Below, in pieces: positions 16,764 through 28,297 of a stretch of 64,000 nt of DNA. Made by a program: the position numbers and the translations under genes. The notes below the pieces were generated by a model. That model made no database searches. It was given only the letters and a program-made list of their open reading frames with translations, and had not been told where the DNA came from. Source of the stretch: an uncultured Pseudomonadota bacterium (GTDB taxonomy: Bacteria; Oederibacteriota; Muellerivitia; Muellerivitales; Muellerivitaceae); assembly GCA_963843375.1 (NCBI GenBank), contig CAWJKT010000011.1, positions 32,001-96,000 of the forward strand, read 5' to 3'. Positions within the stretch are counted from its first letter, which is position 1, and each line of letters opens with the position of its first letter.

Positions 16764-17768
16764 TTAAGGATTTTTCTGGCGTATGGTTTCCAATGAGAAA
16801 AGGGATTCCAATACCTTCAGGTTGTCCGCCAACCGGGGGTAGTTGCCCCCGCCCTGGTCCTGCAACTCTAAGAGAAGCTGACGGATGATCTCAATATAAC
16901 CTTCCAGCCAGCCCAAGCCGTGAAAAGGGGGCTGGCGCGATCCCAGGTTGTTGTCCTTCCTTGGCAATAAAGTGCGGCTGCCGCCCTTGCCCAACCAGAT
17001 GCCGTCCGGGGCCATGAAATTCCAAGTGGCCGACTGTTGGGTGCCGATGAGGGTGATCTCAAAATCGTTGGTGGTGCCGTGGAAAGTTTTGGAAATGGAG
17101 GCCAAGGCCCGGCGGCCTCCGGAAAATTGCAGGTTCAAGTGAACGTGGGTATCCCGGTGGGAGGCTTCGGCGTTGGCGTAGGACAGCCAAGCCGTTCCCT
17201 TGAAACTGGGTTCGCTCATGAGGAAGGCCGCTGTATCCGCCCAATGGACGCCGATGTCAATGAGGGCGTCGGATCCGCCGCTAAGCGCCGGATCGTTTTT
17301 CCAAGGGTGGGGCTTGGGTGAGGGCTCCAAGGTTTTCTGGGCGGCGGAGGACTGCCAGTAGTGCCCCTCGATGGAAATTAACTCGCCGAACTCCCCGGTT
17401 TCCAGCATTTGTTTCAAGGTTTGAGGCCCCCACATCTGGTGATAGCCGTGGCAGACGGCCACGGGAGTTCGGATTAGTTTCAGGGATTCGATCTCCGTCA
17501 GATTCACGCAGGCGGGTTTTTCCACCACCATGGCCTTAAACCCCGCTTTCTCGCCTTCCAGAATGGATTGGGCATGCAGGCCGTGGGGATTAGCGATGAA
17601 TAGGATGGGGTTGTTAGTCTTAGGGGAAATGTCCGGTTTTTGCTTGCGGCTATGGGGAAGAGTTTCTTGAATGCCCCAGTCTGGATACTGAAGAGAGAGA
17701 ATGGCTAGGCTTTTCTGGAAGGCCTGGCCCGCCATGCCCCGGCCAAGAATGAAGGGGGTGATGGTCAT
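16764..17768 (-). CDS. Gfo/Idh/MocA family oxidoreductase
   Basis: ILGRGMAG, NPHGLH, VEKPA, GGSDALIDIGVHWAD. Confidence 0.85.
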   Translation of the reverse strand: MTITPFILGRGMAGQAFQKSLAILSLQYPDWGIQETLPHSRKQKPDISPKTNNPILFIANPHGLHAQSILEGEKAGFKAMVVEKPACVNLTEIESLKLIRTPVAVCHGYHQMWGPQTLKQMLETGEFGELISIEGHYWQSSAAQKTLEPSPKPHPWKNDPALSGGSDALIDIGVHWADTAAFLMSEPSFKGTAWLSYANAEASHRDTHVHLNLQFSGGRRALASISKTFHGTTNDFEITLIGTQQSATWNFMAPDGIWLGKGGSRTLLPRKDNNLGSRQPPFHGLGWLEGYIEIIRQLLLELQDQGGGNYPRLADNLKVLESLFSLETIRQKNP

Positions 17769-17797
17769 TTAATCCTCATTAAAGTTACTTTTAAAAA

Positions 17798-17887
17798 TGG
17801 CGGAGAGAGAGGGATTCGAACCCCCGTTACGATTGCTCGTAAATCTGATTTCGAGTCAGACGCATTCGACCACTCTGCCATCTCTCC
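17798..17887 (-). tRNA. tRNA-Ser (anticodon CGA), encoded CCA end
   Basis: Minus strand reads GGAGAGATGGCAGAGTGGTCGAATGCG-TCTGA-CT-CGA-AA-TCAGA, long variable arm, GGGGG-TTCGAAT-CCCTC, TCTCTCC-G-CCA. Confidence 0.97.
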
Positions 17888-17889
17888 GG
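17847..17889. repeat. att core copy 1 (43 bp; 5' half of tRNA-Ser plus 2 nt of leader)
   Basis: GATTTCGAGTCAGACGCATTCGACCACTCTGCCATCTCTCCGG, identical to 24410-24452. Confidence 0.95.
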
Positions 17890-17895
17890 ATGTCG

Positions 17896-17919
17896 AAACC
17901 CTTTTGTTTAAAAGGGTTT
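17896..17919. repeat. att-proximal hairpin between the int stop and the tRNA
   Basis: AAACCCTTTT-gttt-AAAAGGGTTT, 10-bp stem. Confidence 0.6.
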
Positions 17920-17932
17920 TACTACTTCTGCT

Positions 17933-19033
17933 TTAGGCCTGGACTACCTGATCGGTGCTCCGTGTCATAACCGTGTCATTCAACCTTTCTACCCGGCTTA
18001 AAGCGGCTTTCCGGTCCTCACGGTCTACCCGGTCATAGCGCCTAAAGACGGCGTAGGTCTTATGACCCGAGATCGACATGGTCACTGTGTCGCTGACCCC
18101 AGCTTTGCGGAGGTTTGTTATAGCGCAATGCCTTAAGTCGTGGAACCTAAAATTCTCGATTCCCGCCTTCCGGCAAGCCGTCCCAAAGCCATTCCTGGGG
18201 TCTTTAACCCGCTTTCCTTGGAAGAAAAACACGTAAGGGCTTCCCAGGGTCCTGGGTATCCGTTGAAACAAGGCTATCAGCCTTTTGTTCAACGGTATTT
18301 CCCGCTTTTCCTGGGTCTTGGTGTCGGCGGCTTCCAGGGTGATGACCTCGTTTTTGAGGTCCACCTGATCCCACCTTAGCCCCAAGATTTCCCCCCGCCT
18401 CATCGCGGTCCAATAAGCCAGTTCCACGATTCTCTGCAAGTGGGGAGGACAGCAGGCCAGCAAAGCCTGGTACTCCTCGGGGGTCAAAGTCCTGTCCCTG
18501 GATTGTTCCTTAAAGTGTTGAAGCCCCAAAATCGGGTTGCGCTCCAACTGCCTGTTTAAAACCGCCCGGCTCACAATGGTTTTCAAACAGGCCACGTCCC
18601 GGTTAAGGGTTGCGTTCTTTAAGGTCTTGCCCGACTTAACCTGGCTTCCTTGTTGCCGCCTTTGAGTCAGGTAGGCGTCCACCAAGTCCACCGTTAAGCT
18701 TTCCAAGGGCCGGGTTCCAAAGTAGGCTCTCAGCCTTTTCACGATCTGAACGTCGTTCCTAAAAGATTTTTTCCGGGCCTTGGAATAGGCCAGGAAGGAA
18801 TCCGCCGCGTCATTGAAACTGACACCCGGCTTATCCACCTCTAGGTATTTCTCGTTCACGACTTCCTGATAGTGTTCGGCCAAAACCTTCTTGGCTTGGG
18901 CTAAAGGGATTTGTCCTAAACGGACCCTTTTGCGCTTTCGCAACCCTCCTTCTTTGACGAAGTAATCTAAAAAATAACCCCCTTCATCCCTTCTTAGATG
19001 TTGGGGTAACCCATGGACATTAGGTTTACTCAT
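17933..19033 (-). CDS. int: tyrosine recombinase / phage-type integrase
   Basis: Complete catalytic set TAMRRGE, KT, FHDLRH, SGHK, RRYD; basic N-terminal arm-binding-like segment; adjacent to att. Confidence 0.95.
   Translation of the reverse strand: MSKPNVHGLPQHLRRDEGGYFLDYFVKEGGLRKRKRVRLGQIPLAQAKKVLAEHYQEVVNEKYLEVDKPGVSFNDAADSFLAYSKARKKSFRNDVQIVKRLRAYFGTRPLESLTVDLVDAYLTQRRQQGSQVKSGKTLKNATLNRDVACLKTIVSRAVLNRQLERNPILGLQHFKEQSRDRTLTPEEYQALLACCPPHLQRIVELAYWTAMRRGEILGLRWDQVDLKNEVITLEAADTKTQEKREIPLNKRLIALFQRIPRTLGSPYVFFFQGKRVKDPRNGFGTACRKAGIENFRFHDLRHCAITNLRKAGVSDTVTMSISGHKTYAVFRRYDRVDREDRKAALSRVERLNDTVMTRSTDQVVQA
17962..17986 (+). repeat. putative integrase arm-type site (tandem GTGTCAT)
   Basis: GTGTCATAACCGTGTCATTCAACCT; 23/25 match to 24214-24238, with an inverted copy at 24058-24076. 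Confidence 0.7.
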
Positions 19034-19296
19034 GAAACCCTCCTAATGTCCCCCTCAGCAAGAGGCATTGTATCAGCACCCCCCATCCCTATGGAAAGGG
19101 GCTTTTGGAAAACCCTTAAAAAAACAGAATGCCAAACCCTAGGATGCCGCCCCATCTTCACGAACGGCAGTTGTCCGGTCAGTCTCCAATGGTGGACGGT
19201 TCTAACCGACACTCCAGCCATTTTGGCCACCTGCTCGTCCGACATAAGATAGTCTTGATTCTGCCCCCGACGGTCACGTCCGCTACGGTTCGTCAT
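19030..19296 (-). CDS. excisionase-like HTH protein
   Basis: YLMSDEQVAKMAGVSVRTVHHWRLTGQLPFVKMGRHPRV (HTH_17/MerR-like); SD AGGAGG; ATGA overlap with int. Confidence 0.8.
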   Translation of the reverse strand: MTNRSGRDRRGQNQDYLMSDEQVAKMAGVSVRTVHHWRLTGQLPFVKMGRHPRVWHSVFLRVFQKPLSIGMGGADTMPLAEGDIRRVS

Positions 19297-19643
19297 GGCC
19301 TACCTCCTGAAATATATGGTTTAAAAATAAATGAACCCGAAGGGGTCAAACCTTCGGGGAAAGGTGTGGAAAACCCCGCCTGTCCCGTCAGGGACACTAA
19401 GGGGGGTTTTCCACGGTGTTGCAGTTCGTCTTTCATCTTTACTTCTTCCACTCCCACGCCCGCGCCTACTGTTTGGCTGTTCAAGAGGCCAGCCCCCACT
19501 CCCGTATTACAGTCATCAGATACTGATACTGTGGGAGTGGGGGCTGGCGTCGCCGGACAACCAAACTCCTTGTAGGCGCGGGCGTTTCCGTGGATTTTCG
19601 CTTTAAGCTGTTTTAAGTCCTGCTTTAAGTTTTTCGGGTTCAT
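19293..19643 (-). CDS. hypothetical protein whose coding sequence contains three strong DNA hairpins
   Basis: SD AGGAGG and ATGA overlaps at both ends; low-complexity product. Confidence 0.5.
   Translation of the reverse strand: MNPKNLKQDLKQLKAKIHGNARAYKEFGCPATPAPTPTVSVSDDCNTGVGAGLLNSQTVGAGVGVEEVKMKDELQHRGKPPLVSLTGQAGFSTPFPEGLTPSGSFIFKPYISGGRP
19336..19548. repeat. cluster of three inverted repeats (origin-like)
   Basis: Stems 19336-19343/19351-19358 (8 bp), 19366-19377/19403-19414 (12 bp, with an inner 6-bp stem) and 19488-19503/19533-19548 (16 bp perfect). Confidence 0.8.
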
Positions 19644-20253
19644 GCCGTGGCCTCCTGGGGCCCTTCTTCCGGCTTGATCGCTCTTAGGATGGGGTCTTTT
19701 ACGAAGGGAAGGTAGCCGCCCTCCAGGTTCACCCAGGGCACCCGTATGAAGGGAAGCCGGTCCACCTTCTCGAAAAAGGAAAAGCCCCAGAGGTTCTGGT
19801 TCCTGGGGTCATTCCTGAGGAAGGTCCCCAGCCCTTCCAGCATCCTCAGCGCATGGGGCTTGTCCCGGCTGACCACCAACCGGAAGGCCCCCGGGAAATC
19901 CCTGGTCAGGTTGAGAACCATACCGACCATCTTCTCCCGGTTGTAGGCCGTATGCTCGTACTCCAGAACAAAGGCCTGGGTCCTGCCTTCCAGGGTTCCT
20001 ACGAAAAAACCGTCCGGGGTCCGGTAGTGGACCCGGCGAAGCCTGGTCCCTGCCAAGTCCCACCCCCGTCCGGCTTCCAGGTCCATCTTCCAATCCATCC
20101 TCAGGCCACAGCGCATTTCGTAGTCCGAAAGCCAGGTAAGCCCCTCCAGGCCCCCTTCCCGTTCAATTTGGATTCTCATAGCGAGAACTCGCTTGTCGTG
20201 CTCCCTCTCGAATAGGTTGATATGGGGGGAACGTACTTCCTGGGAAATGAGGA
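19640..20253 (-). pseudogene. Replic_Relax-like (PD-(D/E)xK-type) protein, C-terminal part, split by IS21
   Basis: HINLFEREHD...WLSDYEMR...RTPDGFF...AFVLEYEHT pattern; ORF-track residues upstream of 20253 are IS sequence. Confidence 0.6.
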
Positions 20254-20385
20254 TGTAAACGCCGGTCCAATAGTGTGACGGTCTAGAGAGGGCAAAAAGG
20301 CGGTCGAAAAGTGTGACACTCCCCGAAATTCCCTGGAAGATGTGGGTTTTCAAAGATGAAAACCACGCCTCCAGGAGGAAAAGGA

Positions 20386-21897
20386 GTGTACAAGGACATG
20401 GACCGATGGACCGAAATCCGCAAGAAAATCCTGGTGGAGGGGGTCTCCAAACGCCAGGTGATGGAAGAAGAAGGCATCCACTGGGAAACCCTCAAGAAAA
20501 TACTCGCCCATAGCCAACCCCCGGGCTACCGAATGTACCGGGAGAGGTCACAGCCCAAGATTGGGCCCTTCCTGGGCCGCATCAAGCAAATCCTTCAGGA
20601 CGACAAGCACGTCCACAAAAAACAACGACATACGGCCAAGCGCATTTTTGAGCGCCTGCGGGATGAGGATGGTTACACCGGCGGCTATAGCCAGGTGAAA
20701 AAAGCCGTCCAGGGGTTCAAGCAAAAGAATAGCGAGGTCTTCGTGCCTTTGATCCATCGGCCCGGGGAGGCCCAGGTGGACTTTGGACACGCCCTGGTCA
20801 AACTCAACGGTGTGTTGGTGAAACGGCCTTTCTTTGTGATGGCACTTCCGTATTCGGATGCTTTTTTCGTCCAGATGTTTGAGCGGGAAAGCACGGAGTT
20901 CGTGTGGGAAGGCCATATCCGGGCCTTCGAATATTTTGGCGGCGTGCCCTGGCGGATCAGCTACGACAATGCCAAGACCCTCGTGACGAAGATCGCCGGG
21001 GTACACCAACGGATTTTGACCAAAAGTTTCCAGCAATTGGAGAGCCATTACCTCTTCGATCACCACTTCTGCACGATACGCCGTGGCAATGAAAAGGGCG
21101 TCGTGGAAGGCGGGGTGAAATACGTCCGCCTGAACTTCATGGTCCCGGTTCCACAGGTGGGAAACCTGGATGAACTGAACGAGCAGTTGGAGGTGAAATG
21201 CCGGGAGGACTTGAAGCGCAAATTGCGGGGGAAGGGTCTACCCAAGGTGCAGCTTCTAGACGAGGATAAGGCCCATTTCAGGCCTTTGCCGGCCACTCCC
21301 TTTGACGCCTGTCTGAAACAGTCCACGACAGCCACGTCTTTGTCCCTCGTGCGTTTCGACACCAACGACTATTCCGTTCCTTCCGAATGGGCACACCATC
21401 CGGTGGTGGTGAAGGGGTACATCAAGCGAGTGGATATCTTCCACAAGGACAGGCTCATCGCGACTCACGATCGCCTTTGGGGAAAGGAAGGTGTGGTCTT
21501 CAATCCGGTGCATTATTTAGCGGTTTTGGAAGGGAAACCGGGAGCCCTCGATCATGCCCGGCCCCTGGAAGACTGGAACCTGCCGGAAAGTTTTCCCCTC
21601 CTGCGCCGCCGCATGGAAGCCATGGAAAGGCACCATGGTGAAGGGACACGGGAATTCATCAAGACTCTGCGCCTCTTGGAGAAATATTCCCTCTCGCGGC
21701 TCACCCGTGCGGTGAAGAAAGCTGTGGGAATGGAAATCTATACCCGGGACGCCGTCGCCCAGTTGCTCTACCCCAGGGAGGATTACAGGCTGACCACCTT
21801 CAGCCTTGCCGGTCGTGAGCACTTACGACGGGTTCAAGTGGCCCGGACGGATCTTTCGGCCTACCGGGAGCTGATGGTTGTGGGAGGTGAAGCGTGA
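20386..21897 (+). CDS. istA: IS21 transposase
   Basis: KQRHTAKRIFERL, PGEAQVDFG, YDN, EKGVVEGGV, VRFDTNDYSVP; GTG start after GGAGG. Confidence 0.95.
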   Translation: MYKDMDRWTEIRKKILVEGVSKRQVMEEEGIHWETLKKILAHSQPPGYRMYRERSQPKIGPFLGRIKQILQDDKHVHKKQRHTAKRIFERLRDEDGYTGGYSQVKKAVQGFKQKNSEVFVPLIHRPGEAQVDFGHALVKLNGVLVKRPFFVMALPYSDAFFVQMFERESTEFVWEGHIRAFEYFGGVPWRISYDNAKTLVTKIAGVHQRILTKSFQQLESHYLFDHHFCTIRRGNEKGVVEGGVKYVRLNFMVPVPQVGNLDELNEQLEVKCREDLKRKLRGKGLPKVQLLDEDKAHFRPLPATPFDACLKQSTTATSLSLVRFDTNDYSVPSEWAHHPVVVKGYIKRVDIFHKDRLIATHDRLWGKEGVVFNPVHYLAVLEGKPGALDHARPLEDWNLPESFPLLRRRMEAMERHHGEGTREFIKTLRLLEKYSLSRLTRAVKKAVGMEIYTRDAVAQLLYPREDYRLTTFSLAGREHLRRVQVARTDLSAYRELMVVGGEA

Positions 21898-22667
21898 GCG
21901 AATCCAAAAAGACGCTCTTGCTGGAACACCACCTCAAAAAACTCAAGCTGCCTACCATGCAGCGGGAGTACGACAAGATGGCCCAACTCTGCCGCACAGA
22001 ACGCAGTGACTATCCACAATATCTGCTCAAATTGGCCGAGATGGAGCTTCTAGACCGGGAACGCCGGGCCAAGGAGAGGCGCATCCGCGACGCCAACTTT
22101 CCCGTGCTCAAAACTTTGGACACGTTCGACTTCAAGGCCCAGCCTTCGATCAACCAGGAATTGACGCGGGAACTCATGCGGGGCGAGTACATCGACAAAA
22201 AAGAAAACGTCCTGCTGATCGGCAATTCGGGAACAGGTAAAACCCATTTGGCCACGGCGCTGGCCTACCAGGCCTGCTGTCAGGGCCGGGCGGTGAAGTT
22301 CTTCTCCGTGACCGGCCTGGTCACCGAACTTCTGGAGCGCCGCGAGGAAAAACAATTGGCCAAGTTCCATCGGCAGTTGGCCAGGCTCCACCTAATCGTT
22401 TTGGATGAATTGGGTTACGTACCGTTCACCAAGCCGGGAGCGGAGTTGCTGTTTGAGGTGGTCAGCAAGGCCTATGAGCGAACCAGCCTGATGGTAACGA
22501 CGAATCTTCCCTTTGAAAACTGGGTGGAAATCATGGGTTCCGAAAGGATGACGGGGGCCCTTATTGACCGTTTGACCCATCGGGTGCATATTCTGGAGGC
22601 CAACGGCCAAAGCTTCAGGCTGGTGGAAGCGAAGAAACGGCTGAGACGTAAAGACAAGAAGGATTGA
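21894..22667 (+). CDS. istB: IS21 helper ATPase
   Basis: Walker A GNSGTGKTHLA, Walker B LIVLDELGY, TTNLPF, DRLTH. Confidence 0.95.
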   Translation: MSESKKTLLLEHHLKKLKLPTMQREYDKMAQLCRTERSDYPQYLLKLAEMELLDRERRAKERRIRDANFPVLKTLDTFDFKAQPSINQELTRELMRGEYIDKKENVLLIGNSGTGKTHLATALAYQACCQGRAVKFFSVTGLVTELLERREEKQLAKFHRQLARLHLIVLDELGYVPFTKPGAELLFEVVSKAYERTSLMVTTNLPFENWVEIMGSERMTGALIDRLTHRVHILEANGQSFRLVEAKKRLRRKDKKD

Positions 22668-22767
22668 TAGGTTCAACCAACGACCATATACCCTAAAGGC
22701 GTATGGAAGGCGGGGGGTGTCACACTTTTGGACCGCCCACCGTCACACTTTTCGACCGGCGTTAGCA

Positions 22768-22828
22768 GCTGCATGTGTTCCTGGTTACTGATGAAGCCTT
22801 CCAAGTGATGTTTTTTGTTTTTTTTCAT
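22768..22828 (-). pseudogene. N-terminal fragment of the IS-split Replic_Relax-like gene
   Basis: ATG at 22828 reads MKKNKKHHLEGFISNQEHMQ and joins in frame to LLISQEVR... at 20253 if the IS is removed. Confidence 0.6.
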
Positions 22829-22842
22829 TTTTCTGGGGTTCT

Positions 22843-23202
22843 TTAGTGCCCCGCATAGCGGGTTGGACCGGTTGAGAAAAGACCGGCCATTTCAAGAAGA
22901 AGATTTTTGGTTGTTTTTGGATGAATTTTCAATCCTTCGGCCCAATAGCTCACCGATGCGGGGATCGGGTTTTTTCCCTGTTCCCACTTCTTCACCGTTT
23001 CAGGGCTAACCAGCATCAACTTCGCGAATTGTGGTTGGGAAACCTTCAAGATTTTCCGGGCTTCCTTGATGTCGGCTCCTGTGGTTTTGATGAGAAGTTC
23101 TTCCACCTTCACATTGGCTTTTTCCCCACGCGCGAATTTCAAACCTTCACGAAGGCTTGCTTCAAATTCTTTCAAATCCTTTTTTTTATTTGCCTTTCTC
23201 AT
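22843..23202 (-). CDS. HigA-like XRE-HTH antitoxin
   Basis: SLREGLKFARGE...IKEARKILKVSQPQFAKLMLVSPETVKKWEQGK; overlaps the 3' end of the toxin gene. Confidence 0.85.
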   Translation of the reverse strand: MRKANKKKDLKEFEASLREGLKFARGEKANVKVEELLIKTTGADIKEARKILKVSQPQFAKLMLVSPETVKKWEQGKNPIPASVSYWAEGLKIHPKTTKNLLLEMAGLFSTGPTRYAGH

Positions 23203-23590
23203 GTTGCTCTCCCTTTTTCTCATAAGCCTTTTTGAAGGCTTCTGCCATTGACTTCAAAATCTTCTTTTCATCCGGAGTCAGGTCGGACTTGGTTCGATGG
23301 TTATAAACGGCTTGGAGGTAAATATCATGTTGAACCCGGAAAAGAAGATAGATAAACCTGAACCCACCGCTTTTTCCTAGATTTCTGCTGGGTGAACCCG
23401 CCCGGCCTTTAATCCAACCTCCGGTTCCTTTTATTTCGTCCAGTTTTCCTGACTCGAACTCTATTTTAATCCCATCGCGTATTTCATTGTGGAGACGGGG
23501 TTCAAGTTTTTCGAGGCTTTTTAGTTCCTTCTCGTATCCGGGAAGTCGAACCAAGCGATACTTGGTTTCGGCAATTTGTAGTTCTTCCAT
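23186..23590 (-). CDS. RelE/HigB-family toxin
   Basis: IKGTGGWIKGR...GKSGGFRFIY...KSDLTPDEKK; toxin-first gene order. Confidence 0.85.
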   Translation of the reverse strand: MEELQIAETKYRLVRLPGYEKELKSLEKLEPRLHNEIRDGIKIEFESGKLDEIKGTGGWIKGRAGSPSRNLGKSGGFRFIYLLFRVQHDIYLQAVYNHRTKSDLTPDEKKILKSMAEAFKKAYEKKGEQHEKGK

Positions 23591-23640: not shown

Positions 23641-23907
23641 TCAAGACCCTTTAGTAGAAAAGGCCATATGACCGCCCAAACCTTTGACGATCTTTGCTAT
23701 ATCCACCCATATTTGGAATGCTTCGCGATCAGCCATGACTTTCTTTAATTGCCGAAGAGGTATTTTTGTTTTCTTGGCGATAACCTTAAGGCCGCCCTCT
23801 TTTTCGACCACATTCCAGAAGGCTTCCTGCAAAAGGTCTGCCTTACCGGAATCCAAGCCGAGGGTTAAGTGTTGAGCTCCCAATTTCCGGCATCCCTTGT
23901 TTTTCAT
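23641..23907 (-). CDS. small HTH protein resembling addiction-module antidote proteins
   Basis: AFWNVVEKEGGLKVIAKKTKIPLRQLKK...IAKIVKGLG helix pattern. Confidence 0.5.
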   Translation of the reverse strand: MKNKGCRKLGAQHLTLGLDSGKADLLQEAFWNVVEKEGGLKVIAKKTKIPLRQLKKVMADREAFQIWVDIAKIVKGLGGHMAFSTKGS

Positions 23908-24213: not shown

Positions 24214-24238
24214 GTGTCATATACGTGTCATTCAACCT
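24214..24238 (+). repeat. putative integrase arm-type site (direct copy)
   Basis: GTGTCATATACGTGTCATTCAACCT, 23/25 match to 17962-17986. Confidence 0.7.
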
Positions 24239-24409: not shown

Positions 24410-24452
24410 GATTTCGAGTCAGACGCATTCGACCACTCTGCCATCTCTCCGG
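24410..24452. repeat. att core copy 2 (displaced 5' half of tRNA-Ser)
   Basis: Identical 43-bp repeat of 17847-17889; tRNA homology stops within the 3' strand of the anticodon stem. Confidence 0.95.
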
Positions 24453-24503
24453 GTCAAAAATAGGTTGTTTGGTTGTTCACCGATTTACAGTATCGGTGGA
24501 GTT

Positions 24504-24534
24504 AAAAAAAGCGCGTCCCCCAAAGGGGATGCGC
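24504..24534 (-). terminator. intrinsic terminator on the minus strand
   Basis: GCGCATCCCC-tttg-GGGGACGCGC stem followed by T7. Confidence 0.8.
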
Positions 24535-24539
24535 CTTTG

Positions 24540-24812
24540 ACAGCGGCTTATTGTAACCGAAAAAGGGATGATTTTGTTACCGTCAAAAATCCAGGTGGCG
24601 TACAGTTCCGGCGTCTTCTTGAGGACTTCACGGGGATAAACGGCGGTATGGTCAACGTTCCATTCCTGGTTCAAAACCACGTCTAAAACATGGTTCCGGT
24701 GGTCAACGTACATGGTCAGGAAAGCCTCGTTCCGTTTCCCGCCGATGTATTGCTTGAAGTAGGCCACTACATCTTCCGGGCCTGAAACAACCGCCCTCTT
24801 TTGCTCTAAGAG
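24540..24812 (-). pseudogene. radC: RadC (JAB domain) remnant
   Basis: VSGPEDVVAYF...NEAFLTMYVDHRNHVL...VDHTAVYPREV present; no N-terminus and no HNHPSG metal motif. Confidence 0.75.
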
Positions 24813-24813
24813 G

Positions 24814-26010
24814 TTAAGCCAGTAGTTGAGATGGGTTGGACAAGAAAAACTCCTCTAAATGCATCCCACCGGTTCCGACCATCAATACTTTTGCCTTCGG
24901 ATTTTTCTTGAGGAAAGCCTCCATCCCTTTCGCCTGTCCACTTTTGCCGGATTTCACTTCCAACCCCCAAGATTTGGCGGCGGTCTTCATCACGAAATCC
25001 ACTTCCATGTCATGGTCACGCCAATAAAGCACTTCCCCGAAGGAACGGTCCAAATGATTCAAAAGATGGGCCCCGACGGCGTTTTCCACCAACCGGCCCC
25101 AGGACTCTCCATCCTTCTTGGCTTGGGCAAAGGATAAGGCCCGATGGGCCGAAACCAGGGCGTTATTCCAAAGGATGAGCTTAGGGCTACTGCCCCTCTT
25201 GCCGGGCTTACCGCTCCGATAGGATTCCAGGCCGCTGACGATAAAAGCGCTCTCCAGAAGTTTCAAGTAATGCGCCAAAGTGGTGGTGTTCCCGGCTTCC
25301 TGCAATTGCCCGAGCATTTTGTTGTAGGAGAATATTTGGGCCGGATAACCCGCCGCCAGCCCGAACAGGTGCCCCAACAAGGCGGGCTTTGCCACGGTTT
25401 GGAGTTGAAGCACATCCCGCGACAACACCGTTTCCACTAATGAATTGGTGACGTAGTGTTTCCAGTTATTTTCATCCTTGCGGAATTGAGCCGAACCAGG
25501 GTACCCGCCGAAAAAGATCCATTCCTCCAGGTTCCAGCCGAAAGCGGCCTTCATTTCTCCGTAACCCCAATGACCGCAACGGTACTGAAAGAAACGTCCC
25601 GCAAGACTTTCTGTCAGGCTTTTTTGGACCAGCAAGGCCGATGAACCCAATAGCAAAACAAGGAGGCCTTTGCGCTCATGGAGTTCCCTGTCCCAAAGAA
25701 GCTTGACGGTTTCGCTCCACCCACGGACTTTTTGGATTTCGTCCAGGACCAACAGGACTTTTTTGCGGGGTCCGCATTTGGTAAGGGCCAAGTCCCATTG
25801 GGCATGTATCCACTCGGGTCCCGGTGGAAGGGGTGCATCCGCCGCCGCGAAGACCGTTTCGCCTTTCCATTCGTCGGCTATCTGCCGTGCAGCGGTGGTC
25901 TTTCCCGTTTGCCGGGGGCCTACCAGCACATGGATCACCTTGGTGTATTTATCCAACCCCGCTAGGATTTCCTTTACGACGGGATGTTGGTAATTGGAGT
26001 TTTTCGCCAC
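24814..26010 (-). CDS. AAA-family ATPase with DUF4143-like C-terminal nuclease-fold domain
   Basis: GPRQTGKTT, LDEIQK, LGSS, GGYP, ENAV, YWRD..EVDF, EVKSG. Confidence 0.9.
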   Translation of the reverse strand: MAKNSNYQHPVVKEILAGLDKYTKVIHVLVGPRQTGKTTAARQIADEWKGETVFAAADAPLPPGPEWIHAQWDLALTKCGPRKKVLLVLDEIQKVRGWSETVKLLWDRELHERKGLLVLLLGSSALLVQKSLTESLAGRFFQYRCGHWGYGEMKAAFGWNLEEWIFFGGYPGSAQFRKDENNWKHYVTNSLVETVLSRDVLQLQTVAKPALLGHLFGLAAGYPAQIFSYNKMLGQLQEAGNTTTLAHYLKLLESAFIVSGLESYRSGKPGKRGSSPKLILWNNALVSAHRALSFAQAKKDGESWGRLVENAVGAHLLNHLDRSFGEVLYWRDHDMEVDFVMKTAAKSWGLEVKSGKSGQAKGMEAFLKKNPKAKVLMVGTGGMHLEEFFLSNPSQLLA

Positions 26011-26020
26011 GGGTTCCTCG

Positions 26021-26062
26021 ATTACTCAGTCATTGAGTAATAATACTCAATGACTGAGTAAT
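26021..26062. promoter_or_regulatory. nested palindromic operator upstream of the AAA ATPase
   Basis: ATTACTCAGTCATTGAGTA-ataa-TACTCAATGACTGAGTAAT: perfect 19-bp inverted repeat whose arms are each TACTCA-N5-TGAGTA. Confidence 0.8.
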
Positions 26063-26089
26063 TTTCAATCTTCTTTGTTTGAGAGGGGC

Positions 26090-26707
26090 TTAGTCGCCTT
26101 GGATCGCTTCTAGGTATGGTCCCAAGACCTTATCGACCCGGCAGATCTTCGAGAACCTAGTGAGTTCATCTGTTTTCTTCCACTTGCTTCTCCAATAGTT
26201 ACGGAGAGCCTCCAGTACCGTATCGAGCCCAACGACAGTGCGAAACTTAAAACAATCCGCAAGGGTCTTTTCACGGGAATAAATCCTGACTTTTACCCCG
26301 TCGATTAGATGTTCCTCAATCCCTTCTGAGAAAGCCTTACCGGAAAAATGGAATACCCGAATAGGGGGATATTCCATTTTGGGAGTCCAAGCCCCCCTTT
26401 TGACCGCAAGGTATATCTCATGTGGTATCTGGGTGGTCATTTCGTGGAAGGAAAGGGCTGATATCAGGCAAAGGACCCCTTCCGGAACCTTTTGGATGAC
26501 GGTCACAAGATCAGGGTTGGCCAGGGGCGGCATTGTGGAAAGGCGGTATACCCCCCGGCCTAACTGATCCAGGACTTTGGCGTCCCGCATGGAATAAAGC
26601 TTTACCGGATGGATGCCAAGCCTTATGGCATTCATCGTCGAAAGGATTCCCCCGTTTTTTCGGAAAATGCCGATTTCTTTTATGAATTGTTTTTCCAGCT
26701 TATTCAT
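26090..26707 (-). CDS. type IV TA antitoxin, AbiEi family (no AbiEii partner here)
   Basis: wHTH with LGRGVYRL, GVLCLISALSFHEMTTQIP, YSREKTLADCFK. Confidence 0.85.
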   Translation of the reverse strand: MNKLEKQFIKEIGIFRKNGGILSTMNAIRLGIHPVKLYSMRDAKVLDQLGRGVYRLSTMPPLANPDLVTVIQKVPEGVLCLISALSFHEMTTQIPHEIYLAVKRGAWTPKMEYPPIRVFHFSGKAFSEGIEEHLIDGVKVRIYSREKTLADCFKFRTVVGLDTVLEALRNYWRSKWKKTDELTRFSKICRVDKVLGPYLEAIQGD

Positions 26708-26710
26708 GAC

Positions 26711-26756
26711 TGATAGTTTCCGATACATTTATATACTTCTGTATAGGTTACTATCA
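26711..26756. promoter_or_regulatory. inverted-repeat operator of abiEi
   Basis: TGATAGTTTCCGATACA ... TGTATAGGTTACTATCA (14/17), immediately upstream of the ATG at 26707. Confidence 0.55.
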
Positions 26757-26823
26757 TACTATGATAAGCATTTGTCAAGCAGTCAGGGGTAGCCCCTGCT
26801 CCCCTCTTAGGCCCCTCGCTACT

Positions 26824-26876
26824 CTCAAAATCTATCGACCTCACGGTCATGTCGGTTCAAGTCCGACCTCGCACCA
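26824..26876 (+). pseudogene. 3' half of tRNA-Leu(CAA), att-like remnant
   Basis: CT-CAA-AA loop, TCTAT, variable arm GACC-tcac-GGTC, T arm GTCGG-TTCAAGT-CCGAC, CTCGC-A-CCA; 5' half absent and acceptor strand 2 nt short. Confidence 0.8.
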
Positions 26877-26976
26877 ATTTTTTTGCTTCAGAATCGTTTC
26901 TAAAAACTTCCAAAAACATTGTCCTCAGCGGATTTTAAGGCCCTTGTCCGGTTCCAAAGACCGTTCAGGAGCCTTT

Positions 26977-27525
26977 TTAGTTTGGGACGGTTAGGGAGGG
27001 TTCCGGAGGGTGACCTTTCCCCAAAAACTGATCCAAAAATATGTTAGCTTTGGAAATCAGATTTGGGAGGAAAAAATGGCAAAGAAACGGTTTTTGTCCG
27101 AACAGGTTGAAGAAGGAACGGGGTCCGCCCACGGGGCATTTCATCTTATCCAACTCCGCGTCCGCCAAAGTCTGGGCCTCATTATTCAGGGCCGTGAAGT
27201 CATATTTGGAGCAGGGTACTCCGACTTGGGAAAGCTCCACTTCCACTTGGCGACGGTCATCGCAAGGTGCCGACGTCCCTTTGTATTGTGGCGCGATCCC
27301 AGTGATTCGGCGGGCGACGGGCGTGGACTTGGGCGGCTCGGTGCCGATGGAACCTTTTTCCATTACCGGCGTGACCGTGGGAGTATCAGTGGGCGGGTTC
27401 GCTTGCTGTTTCTCCCCCTTGTCCTGGCAGGAAAGGCCGACTAACGTTCCCATTCCAAACGACATCAAGAGAGTAATGATTTGAAGAGGGTTATGTATTC
27501 TCAGACGTTGGGAAGCCAATCTCAT
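26977..27525 (-). CDS. putative lipoprotein, C-terminus possibly truncated or chimeric
   Basis: SD AAGGAG, lipobox-like VGLSC, Pro/Thr linker and Cys-containing domain; composition changes after CPVGGP. Confidence 0.45.
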   Translation of the reverse strand: MRLASQRLRIHNPLQIITLLMSFGMGTLVGLSCQDKGEKQQANPPTDTPTVTPVMEKGSIGTEPPKSTPVARRITGIAPQYKGTSAPCDDRRQVEVELSQVGVPCSKYDFTALNNEAQTLADAELDKMKCPVGGPRSFFNLFGQKPFLCHFFLPNLISKANIFLDQFLGKGHPPEPSLTVPN

Positions 27526-27633
27526 AAACCACTCCTTTATAGACCGAACTTTAAATACGGCGGTATTGTTAAGGGGGATTCGTCTGCCTGGACAAGGCGG
27601 GAAATGTTATGATGATGTAACTCTTTTGACCGG

Positions 27634-28297
27634 ATGACACCTCCAACCATGAAGAAAAACTCCATCGCCCACCTGCGCCGCGAATACCGAAACCGCGGGC
27701 TCCTCGAGAAAGACGCGCCTTCCAATCCTTATATACTTTTTGAAAAGTGGTTCAAGGAAGCCTTGAAAGTGAAGGCCTTGGACGCCAATGCCATGGCCCT
27801 GGCCACCGTTTCATCGGCGGGAAAACCTTCATTACGGACCGTACTTTTAAAGGGTTATGATTCCAAAGGTTTCGTTTTTTATACCAATTACGAAAGCCAT
27901 AAGGGCAGGGATCTGGGCGCAAGGCCGGTGGCCAGCCTGCTTTTTTTCTGGCCACAATTAAGCCGCCAAATCCGCATCGACGGGCCGGTGAAAAAGGTGC
28001 CCGATTGGGAATCGGACGAGTATTTCCAAACTCGGCCCCGGGGAAGCCAGTTGGGAGCTTGGGCTTCGAATCAAAGCCGGGTGATCGGGAACAGAGAATT
28101 CTTGGAAAAACAAATGAAAGCGCTGGAAAAAAATTATGAAAACCAATTGGTTCCCCGGCCATGCCCATTGGGGAGGGTACCGGGTGACTCCCGAAAGTAT
28201 TGAGTTTTGGAAGGGAAGACCCAACCGCTTGCATGACCGGTTGGTTTACCATAAGAAAAAGGCTGGAGGATGGAACCGAGAACGGCTTTCTCCTTGA
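27634..28297 (+). CDS. pdxH: pyridoxamine 5'-phosphate oxidase (frameshift near 28160)
   Basis: [29 protein letters not shown]; second frame continues HWGGYRV...[13 protein letters not shown]...RERLSP*. Confidence 0.9.

Follow-up and report, generated by a model that had tools for sequence, protein, structure and literature searches.

A compact run of minus-strand genes at positions 17933-23590 of the window (the whole 64,000-nt stretch analyzed here, from contig CAWJKT010000011.1 of the uncultured bacterial assembly GCA_963843375.1) raises the question of what kind of mobile element it represents. A preliminary description had read the locus, here called E1, as an intact, minimal, satellite-like system of an undescribed kind: a toxin-antitoxin (TA) pair, a putative relaxase (Rel), a short open reading frame (ORF), an excisionase (Xis) and an integrase (Int), coupled in one operon that leads into a tRNA gene, with the autorepressed TA promoter gating nicking, excision and tRNA expression. 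We find that E1, broken by an IS21-family insertion sequence (IS), is probably not a minimal system but a degenerate representative of a family of integrative mobilizable elements (IMEs) specific to one lineage, and that its TA pair is probably cargo. The broader idea of a small, helper-dependent integrative element is supported.

The E1 element and its family

E1 is broader than first described: its true ends, orf88 and a 25-nt arm-type repeat had all gone unlisted. A perfect 43-nt direct repeat (17847-17889 = 24410-24452) brackets its genes and, taken as the ends, gives E1 a size of 6,563 bp, or 4,049 bp minus the IS. On the minus strand the order is toxin, antitoxin, a 14-nt gap, an ATG at 22828, the IS (on the opposite strand), rel, orf116, xis, int and tRNA-Ser(CGA). 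The tight, co-oriented packing noted earlier is all present in the sequence. Toxin and antitoxin overlap, ATGA start/stop overlaps join rel to orf116, orf116 to xis and xis to int, each with an AGGAGG upstream, and the tRNA follows int after a 46-nt spacer.

The int gene (17933-19033, minus strand) encodes a 366-aa tyrosine integrase (PF00589, 90.3 bits; phrog_1 integrase, E 2.4e-64) and is, from its sequence, apparently intact. Its neighbor xis (19030-19296, minus strand) encodes an 88-aa excisionase-type helix-turn-helix (HTH) protein, which matches PF12728 HTH_17 as anticipated (29.5 bits against a cut-off of 27) and the NCBIfam excisionase model TIGR01764 at E 8.7e-5, under that model's cut-off. 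The product of orf116 (19293-19643, minus strand) has a low-complexity middle and no Pfam, NCBIfam or PHROG match; its gene belongs to the family backbone, and tblastn places relatives between Rel and xis in 22/22 backbone loci. Searches of the E1 proteins against Pfam, NCBIfam and PHROGs returned no capsid, primase or type IV secretion system family, in agreement with the preliminary description.

E1 has the recombinase and flanking attachment repeats of an IME (the PF00589 integrase, the 43-nt repeat and arm repeats). The int-proximal attachment repeat (17847-17889) comprises 2 nt upstream of the tRNA plus tRNA positions 1-41, through the anticodon loop; the distal one (24410-24452) is an orphan tRNA-Ser(CGA) 5' half, displaced from the gene and still adjoining the native upstream flank. 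An arm-type repeat with the tandem pattern ATGACAC NNNN ATGACAC lies within the 3' end of int (17962-17986) and recurs as a 92% direct repeat (25 nt) at 24214-24238, in the 500-nt non-coding stretch that forms the distal arm. The ATGACAC motif is conserved across different tRNA targets, and after circularization the arm repeats would flank the core on both sides, the layout expected for arm-type integrase sites. The closest relative of the distal arm (24415-24214; 87% identity over 202 nt) is the arm of a related element, L016 (6150-6460). That element has lost its distal tRNA repeat together with most of its coupling-protein gene, which indicates that decay of these islands is recurrent.

The same genome carries six full-length integrase paralogs, 62-66% identical, five of them in bounded elements that each have a perfect 40-46-nt repeat plus a pair of short arm repeats. 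The repeated part is the tRNA 5' half in E1 (6.6 kb, tRNA-Ser(CGA)), E2 (18.9 kb, tRNA-Ser(UGA)) and E4 (8.7 kb, tRNA-Arg(UCG)), the 3' half in E3 (7.2 kb, tRNA-Asp), and the 3' exon in E5 (16.9 kb), whose tRNA-Met(CAT) contains a group I intron. The backbone of E2 is intact. A ribbon-helix-helix (RHH) gene comes first, followed by the genes of a VirD4/TraG-type coupling protein of 598 aa (48.1 bits for PF12696 and 38.6 bits for PF10412) and of a Rel of 289 aa, and then by orf128, which is homologous to orf116, xis and int.

Scanning relatives, with one genome per species, we find 52 loci with Rel relatives; the named ones are nearly all metagenome-assembled genomes of candidate division FCPU426. 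The order rel-orf116-xis-int, leading into the tRNA, recurs in 22 of the 52, so that this part of the preliminary description holds well beyond E1. In 19 of those 22 the coupling protein lies directly upstream of a Rel of about 290 aa, and of the three loci without it, two begin at the edge of a contig. ORF clustering over 23 loci recovers Int in 22, Rel in 21, the coupling protein in 19, Xis in 17, RHH in 12 and orf116 in 11; the next clusters occur in at most 6 loci and are host genes beyond the tRNA. The three closest relatives at the same tRNA-Ser(CGA), with integrases 77-85% identical, all have a full Rel preceded by coupling-protein sequence, which is complete in L020 and L021 and reduced to the C-terminal part in L016. 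From these comparisons, the predicted family backbone is an RHH protein, a VirD4-type coupling protein, Rel, orf116, Xis and the tyrosine integrase, followed by the tRNA. The family (coupling protein and Rel in 19/22 loci) fits a mark of IMEs, an own relaxase and/or coupling protein with no mating-pore genes; E1 has no coupling protein and its Rel is truncated.

In about 25 further loci a coupling protein precedes a Rel of greater divergence, with a tRNA gene shortly upstream in around half. Such pairs make up a second sub-family (L038-L067), in which Rel is 32-39% identical to that of E2 and the tRNA, where present, is some 500 nt away; the 10 kb downstream of these loci yielded no E1-type integrase.

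In an intact member, recombination by Int and Xis across the tRNA-derived repeat would release the element. Rel, possibly helped by orf116 and the RHH protein, would process an origin of transfer (oriT), and the element's own coupling protein would dock the DNA onto the mating pore of a helper.

What separates E1 from such a member is centered on its IS21-family IS (20254-22767, plus strand), which carries istA (20356-21897; rve and Mu-transpos_C_2 domains) and istB (21894-22667; PF01695 IstB, 233 bits). Its limits, and so its length of 2,514 bp, are exact because three other full copies in the genome (C8:87689-90202, C8:175802-178315 and C5:23288-25801) are 100% identical, all sharing the ends TGTAAACGCCGG... 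and ...CCGGCGTTAGCA, in line with the terminal inverted repeats of the IS21 family. Of the four full copies, three are carried by elements with integrases of this family (E1, E4 and E5). Contigs of runs X1 and X6 bridge the IS junctions in E1. An exact 31-nt pattern from the left IS flank matched 0 metagenome contigs, a result that does not show the absence of an IS-free form. Contig C7 has one more IS end, at its edge, next to a coupling-protein gene that is truncated (C7:100-606).

In E1 the IS occupies the place that the body of the RHH gene, the coupling-protein gene and the winged helix of Rel hold in relatives. The truncated Rel (19640-20253, minus strand) keeps its PD-(D/E)xK-like domain and lacks the N-terminal winged helix (~66 residues). 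Its alignment to the 289-aa paralog covers residues 87-289, with 65% identity. BLAST can lengthen this alignment to start at residue 67; the added part enters codons identical in all IS copies, and is taken as chance because those codons belong to the IS end. The ATG that had been presented as the start of Rel, 14 nt after the antitoxin stop, instead opens a 20-codon stub (22768-22828, minus strand). This stub is unrelated to the Rel N-terminus, returning only its self-match in a tblastn comparison with the Rel family, and lies outside the TA cassette discussed below. It may represent the beginning of the RHH gene that E1 has lost; the resemblance of MKKNKKHHLEG to the RHH starts of the family (MKKKQGRGRPILEG; MKK...LEG) is too weak to count. 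Excision and reintegration of E1 are plausible, because int, xis, the arms and the perfect repeat are intact. Self-mobilization, judged on gene content, is no longer plausible.

Rel and its predicted role in transfer

Rel has 80 close homologs, all "hypothetical" or without a name and mostly 287-303 aa long. Every family-invariant residue, including the D of PDG and the E-x-E motif, is present in the E1 remnant. Searches of the Rel copies against Pfam, NCBIfam and PHROGs gave nothing usable (NF041423 MobC_subf scored 12.7 bits against a cut-off of 200), and a Rel profile compared with PDB sequences found only a chance-level kinase match. A profile built from 28 members matched 131 proteins among 1.84 billion representatives. 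PF13814 Replic_Relax was carried by 36 of the 82 more distant matches, and no other family by more than one. Rescanned one by one at E<=1e-5, 8 of 35 such distant matches scored above the PF13814 curated cut-off; the Rel profile had matched these 8 at E 1e-8 to 1e-20. An hhalign comparison of Rel with the 8 proteins gave 99.86%, E 4e-31, over 254 columns, pairing RTPDGYF...FVLEYEH of Rel with RIPDALF...VLEYEH. In the ESM Atlas, the clusters nearest Rel have PF13814 on 17-29% of their members.

Predicted structures point the same way. In the AlphaFold model of the E2 Rel (mean predicted local distance difference test, pLDDT, 90.3), residues 1-87 form a MarR-like winged helix (Z 9-10). The modeled E1 remnant (pLDDT 86.5) finds its best structural matches in SdaI (Z 7.9), the nickase N.BspD6I (7.8), R.BspD6I (7.7), PaqCI (7.4) and FokI (6.9), with many other restriction-type nucleases among the rest. 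MOBC relaxases have a winged helix joined to a PD-(D/E)xK-like fold, an architecture that Rel may share; the structural comparison here was made on Rel alone. We therefore regard the "Replic_Relax-like" label of the preliminary description as right for the family, on profile and fold evidence together. The strong profile links suggest that Rel is a divergent protein of the Replic_Relax/MobC type, with a winged helix and a restriction-endonuclease-like domain.

Passages in PMC5357655 and PMC5704250 assign PF13814 to the MobC relaxase superfamily, and describe MobC as the relaxase type present where mobilizable plasmids, and two streptococcal IMEs, encode a VirD4 coupling protein of their own. 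A passage in PMC6499999, on work of Francia et al. (2013), relates MOBC relaxases to restriction endonucleases. Like the MOBC relaxases of the pAD1 TraX group, Rel has a PDG...LEYEH acidic motif region and a gene beside that of a VirD4 coupling protein. It differs in having no direct Pfam or NCBIfam match and, in the E1 copy, no DNA-binding domain, and its relaxase role is a prediction.

Contig C27 of this assembly was considered as a PF13814 reference, being the sole source of that family in 99 genomes of the phylum. It is high in G+C, frameshifted and probably a contaminant, so it was not used. This contig (L014/L015) has 58% G+C, actinobacterial-looking frames and a frameshifted bona fide PF13814 gene, and probably represents contamination of the bin.

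Several observations weigh against reading E1 as a broken member of a mobilizable family. The PF13814 model itself does not match the Rel of E1, E2 or E3, even at E<=10 or 0.1. The hhalign comparison is not independent, because the 8 proteins came from the Rel profile's own matches; only their Pfam label is. The fold matches of the Rel C-terminal domain are middling (best Z 7.9), and Foldseek returned no match at E<=0.001 for either Rel model. Helper mating-pore genes were not found in the 80%-complete assembly (no PF03135 VirB4 match and no AAA_10 match above cut-off). As to the IS, none of its four full, identical copies has the short target-site duplication expected of the IS21 family, so that the lack of one in E1 cannot prove an IS-linked deletion. 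The coupling-protein gene may have been lost before the IS arrived, and arithmetic on the coordinates gives an open, IS-removed frame of 224 codons. Finally, the nicking, transfer and excision attributed to the family are themselves predicted from sequence.

A conserved cis block (19323-19379, minus strand), inside the 3' end of orf116 and just ahead of the xis ribosome-binding site, bears on whether E1 might still move. It comprises a 30-nt block, GCGGGGTTTTCCACACCTTTCCCCGAAGGT (19379-19350), a GC hairpin (19358-19336) and a T tract. The 30 nt are near-invariant in 21/21 aligned loci. In all 21 they are followed by a GC-rich hairpin of variable sequence (-8.8 to -20.3 kcal/mol, each sequence folded separately) and a T-rich run; a strict covariation count is not possible because the alignment register differs between sequences. 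A terminator scan has a match here in E1, in a scan whose overall promoter and terminator counts are not above those of shuffles. The block resembles an intrinsic terminator or attenuator; its invariant 30 nt could instead be a cis site, for example an oriT.

If so, E1 might be excised by its own Int and Xis and transferred in trans by its paralog E2, with 19379-19336 serving as the oriT. Several features favor this route: int, xis, both arms and the perfect repeat of E1 are intact, as is the E2 backbone, with its coupling protein and a Rel 65% identical to that of E1, and the 30-nt block is near-invariant though the neighboring proteins are only 45-80% identical. However, the block is coding sequence and could be conserved for its protein, and, given its T tract, a terminator is an equally good reading. 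The missing mating-pore genes count against this route as well. Contigs of runs X1, X2, X5 and X6 contain no excised or empty-site joint, although this is weak evidence, since contigs drop rare forms. We consider continued movement in trans unlikely, but a real possibility.

Less likely still is that Rel is a replication initiator, the family consisting of integrative, plasmid-like elements that replicate after excision and use the VirD4-like ATPase for DNA pumping or partition. The Pfam name Replic_Relax covers both roles, the backbone has no separate replication gene, and the genome yielded no mating-pore genes. The tight pairing of Rel with a VirD4/TraG-type coupling protein, in about 40 loci and two sub-families, argues for transfer, and it matches the VirD4 and MobC association published for mobilizable plasmids and IMEs (as far as PMC5357655 and PMC5704250 describe it). 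A degenerate mobilizable element remains our preferred reading of E1.

The toxin-antitoxin cassette

The toxin gene (23186-23590, minus strand) encodes a 134-aa protein of the HigB2/RelE type. It scores 26.8 bits against PF06296, whose cut-off is 27, so the RelE-type profile that the preliminary description expected falls short by 0.2 bits; matches to HigB-2 in the PDB (E 6.5e-7) and to phrog_5869 (E 3.5e-14) agree with the assignment. The antitoxin (22843-23202, minus strand) is a HigA2-like HTH protein (PF01381, 26.4 bits against 23; PDB HigA-2, E 0.034). Its frame extends over 22843-23223, and the ATG at 23202, which has the better ribosome-binding site, is the likelier predicted start. The two genes overlap by 17-38 nt, giving a RelE-fold toxin followed by an overlapping HTH antitoxin. 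The HigB-2/HigA-2 pair of Vibrio cholerae (PDB 5ja9, 5jaa) has the same toxin-first order and overlap; the E1 pair differs in its low similarity and in that its function is predicted.

Upstream lies orf88 (23641-23907, minus strand), a possible small repressor (phrog_4268 transcriptional repressor, E 4.9e-4). It is preceded by a promoter-like site at 23976-23947 (TTGTCA-18-TAGAAT, 10/12 positions), from a scan whose promoter counts are not above those of shuffles.

The HigB2/HigA2 pair occurs in 0 of the 52 Rel loci and is absent from the other elements of this genome. The segment 23626-22839 shares 87% DNA identity with a metagenome contig that has no other gene in common with E1. This homology begins 36 nt ahead of the toxin ATG and stops 4 nt past the antitoxin stop. 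The pair and orf88 are probably accessory cargo, plausibly an addiction module, rather than the element's switch, and the HigB2-like toxin with its HTH antitoxin would stabilize the E1 remnant.

For all their shared orientation, ATGA overlaps and AGGAGG sites, and although the frame that begins 14 nt past the antitoxin stays open once the IS is removed, we find it highly improbable that these genes form one intact, TA-gated operon: the resulting Rel would be without the family winged helix, the TA pair is a separate cassette missing from every related locus, orf88 has its own promoter-like site upstream of the toxin, and a hairpin and T tract lie ahead of xis in 21/21 loci, the kind of internal terminator that the preliminary description had itself named as a refutation.

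tRNA targets and reversed orientation

The tRNA-Ser(CGA) gene beside int (17798-17887, minus strand; called by ARAGORN; Rfam tRNA, 62.4 bits) is intact, and only a 5' tRNA fragment stands at the distal end of E1. The 5' half of the intact gene (positions 1-41) comes from the int-side repeat, and its 3' half continues into host DNA. A repeat made of the tRNA 5' half is also found in E2, E4 and L020. The relative G047 has the same tRNA-Ser(CGA) with no integrase adjoining, that is, an unoccupied site. About 17 nt upstream of the G047 tRNA resemble the distal flank of E1 (24453-24466) and not its int-side flank. This indicates that E1 sits on the upstream side of the tRNA, whose native upstream region it has moved 6.5 kb off. 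With the native promoter at that distance, we infer from this geometry that transcription of the intact tRNA must come from within the element.

Many members of the family are integrated in reversed orientation. Among 32 full-length family integrases, 14 point at the 5' end of a tRNA on the same strand (Ser-CGA, Ser-UGA, Arg-UCG or Thr-CGU), 7 converge on a tRNA 3' end in the conventional way (Asp, Arg-UCU or Val), and 11 have no called tRNA adjoining. In a maximum-likelihood tree, integrases group by target, and the conventional ones form one well-supported clade, sister to that of E1. We claim no direction for the change in orientation, because the root is a midpoint only.

Zhao and Williams (2002, J Bacteriol 184:859) reportedly described an integrative element that reverses the usual tRNA target orientation. 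Passages in PMC6563490 cite that element as a rare case of 5'-distal recombination, and state that recombination at the 5'-distal part of tRNA genes is considerably less frequent than at the 3' part. As that source presents it, the earlier element resembles E1 in that the repeat is the 5' part of the tRNA and the element sits upstream of the intact tRNA, separating it from its native promoter. The difference is that reversal here is a family trait, seen in 14 of the 21 integrases with an adjoining tRNA and at four tRNA targets, with the conventional clade nested within.

Between the int stop and the tRNA lies a 10-bp hairpin (17896-17919, minus strand; AAACCCTTTT / AAAAGGGTTT). The three other tRNA-Ser(CGA) elements retain it with changes that compensate in the paired stem, and a similar one follows int in E5. 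A promoter consensus scan found no match in the int-tRNA spacer of E1. Visual inspection of the tRNA-Ser(UGA) elements shows a candidate promoter common to them, a string resembling TTGAnn-N16-TAnGnT that lies 12 nt before the tRNA.

E5 adjoins a tRNA-Met(CAT) with a 222-nt group I intron in the anticodon loop (RF00028, 73 bits; L012:17139-17506 = C8:101738-102105). Its 40-nt attachment repeat begins exactly at the 3' exon, and the int-side copy is preceded by ACTCAT, as in a spliced, intron-less anticodon loop.

Beyond the distal attachment site of E1, positions 24453-27600 hold a RadC fragment, an AAA_14/DUF4143 ATPase, an AbiEi-like gene and a 182-aa ORF. This stretch, which ends before a host pyridoxamine-phosphate-oxidase-like gene (27634-28203), is probably an older island remnant with no detectable repeat. 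In G047 the oxidase-like gene is only ~365 nt from the empty tRNA. Rfam matches to MIR1882, sX4 and a plastid 3'UTR at 19457-19584 and 17767-17893, over orf116 and the tRNA, lie far under the gathering scores and are taken as chance.

By comparative evidence the E1 family appears to be new and lineage-specific, and its kind is known: IMEs that encode a MobC-type relaxase together with a VirD4 coupling protein. A compact coupling protein-relaxase-excisionase-integrase order is common among IMEs, according to a passage in PMC5357655 (Coluzzi et al. 2017). In the portions of PMC5357655 and PMC5704250 that treat it, the streptococcal IME_Class_8 (VirD4 coupling protein and MobC/PF13814 relaxase) has the same module order as our family. 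The family also shares with streptococcal IMEs, as covered there, the pairing of a VirD4-type coupling protein with a MobC-superfamily protein, the lack of mating-pore genes, site-specific integration, and TA and restriction-modification cargo. Unlike IME_Class_8, which uses a serine integrase, it has a tyrosine integrase and Xis, a Rel too divergent for PF13814, and the additional orf116 and RHH genes. It also differs in residing in an uncultured candidate phylum, in using its tRNA target mostly in reversed orientation and, for the E1 copy, in being truncated.

Our analysis removes a false lead, in that the "toxin-antitoxin-gated minimal element" is an artifact of an IS21 within a decayed island. 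It delimits at base resolution a previously unannotated family of mobilizable islands of candidate division FCPU426, with a divergent MobC-type relaxase branch that the Pfam and NCBIfam models used here miss. The interest of the family rests on that branch, on the conserved cis block and on the family-wide reversed tRNA orientation, not on a TA "master switch". We suggest, tentatively, that by inserting "backwards" and replacing the tRNA 5' half and promoter, these elements might make host tRNAs, including a tRNA-Ser(UGA) expected to be indispensable, dependent on transcription from their own xis-int end. This would amount to an addiction and would couple element regulation to host decoding, with the 30-nt block and hairpin acting as an oriT, a read-through attenuator, or both. 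As a natural set of reversed tRNA integrations, the family could serve to study how expression of a displaced tRNA gene is maintained.

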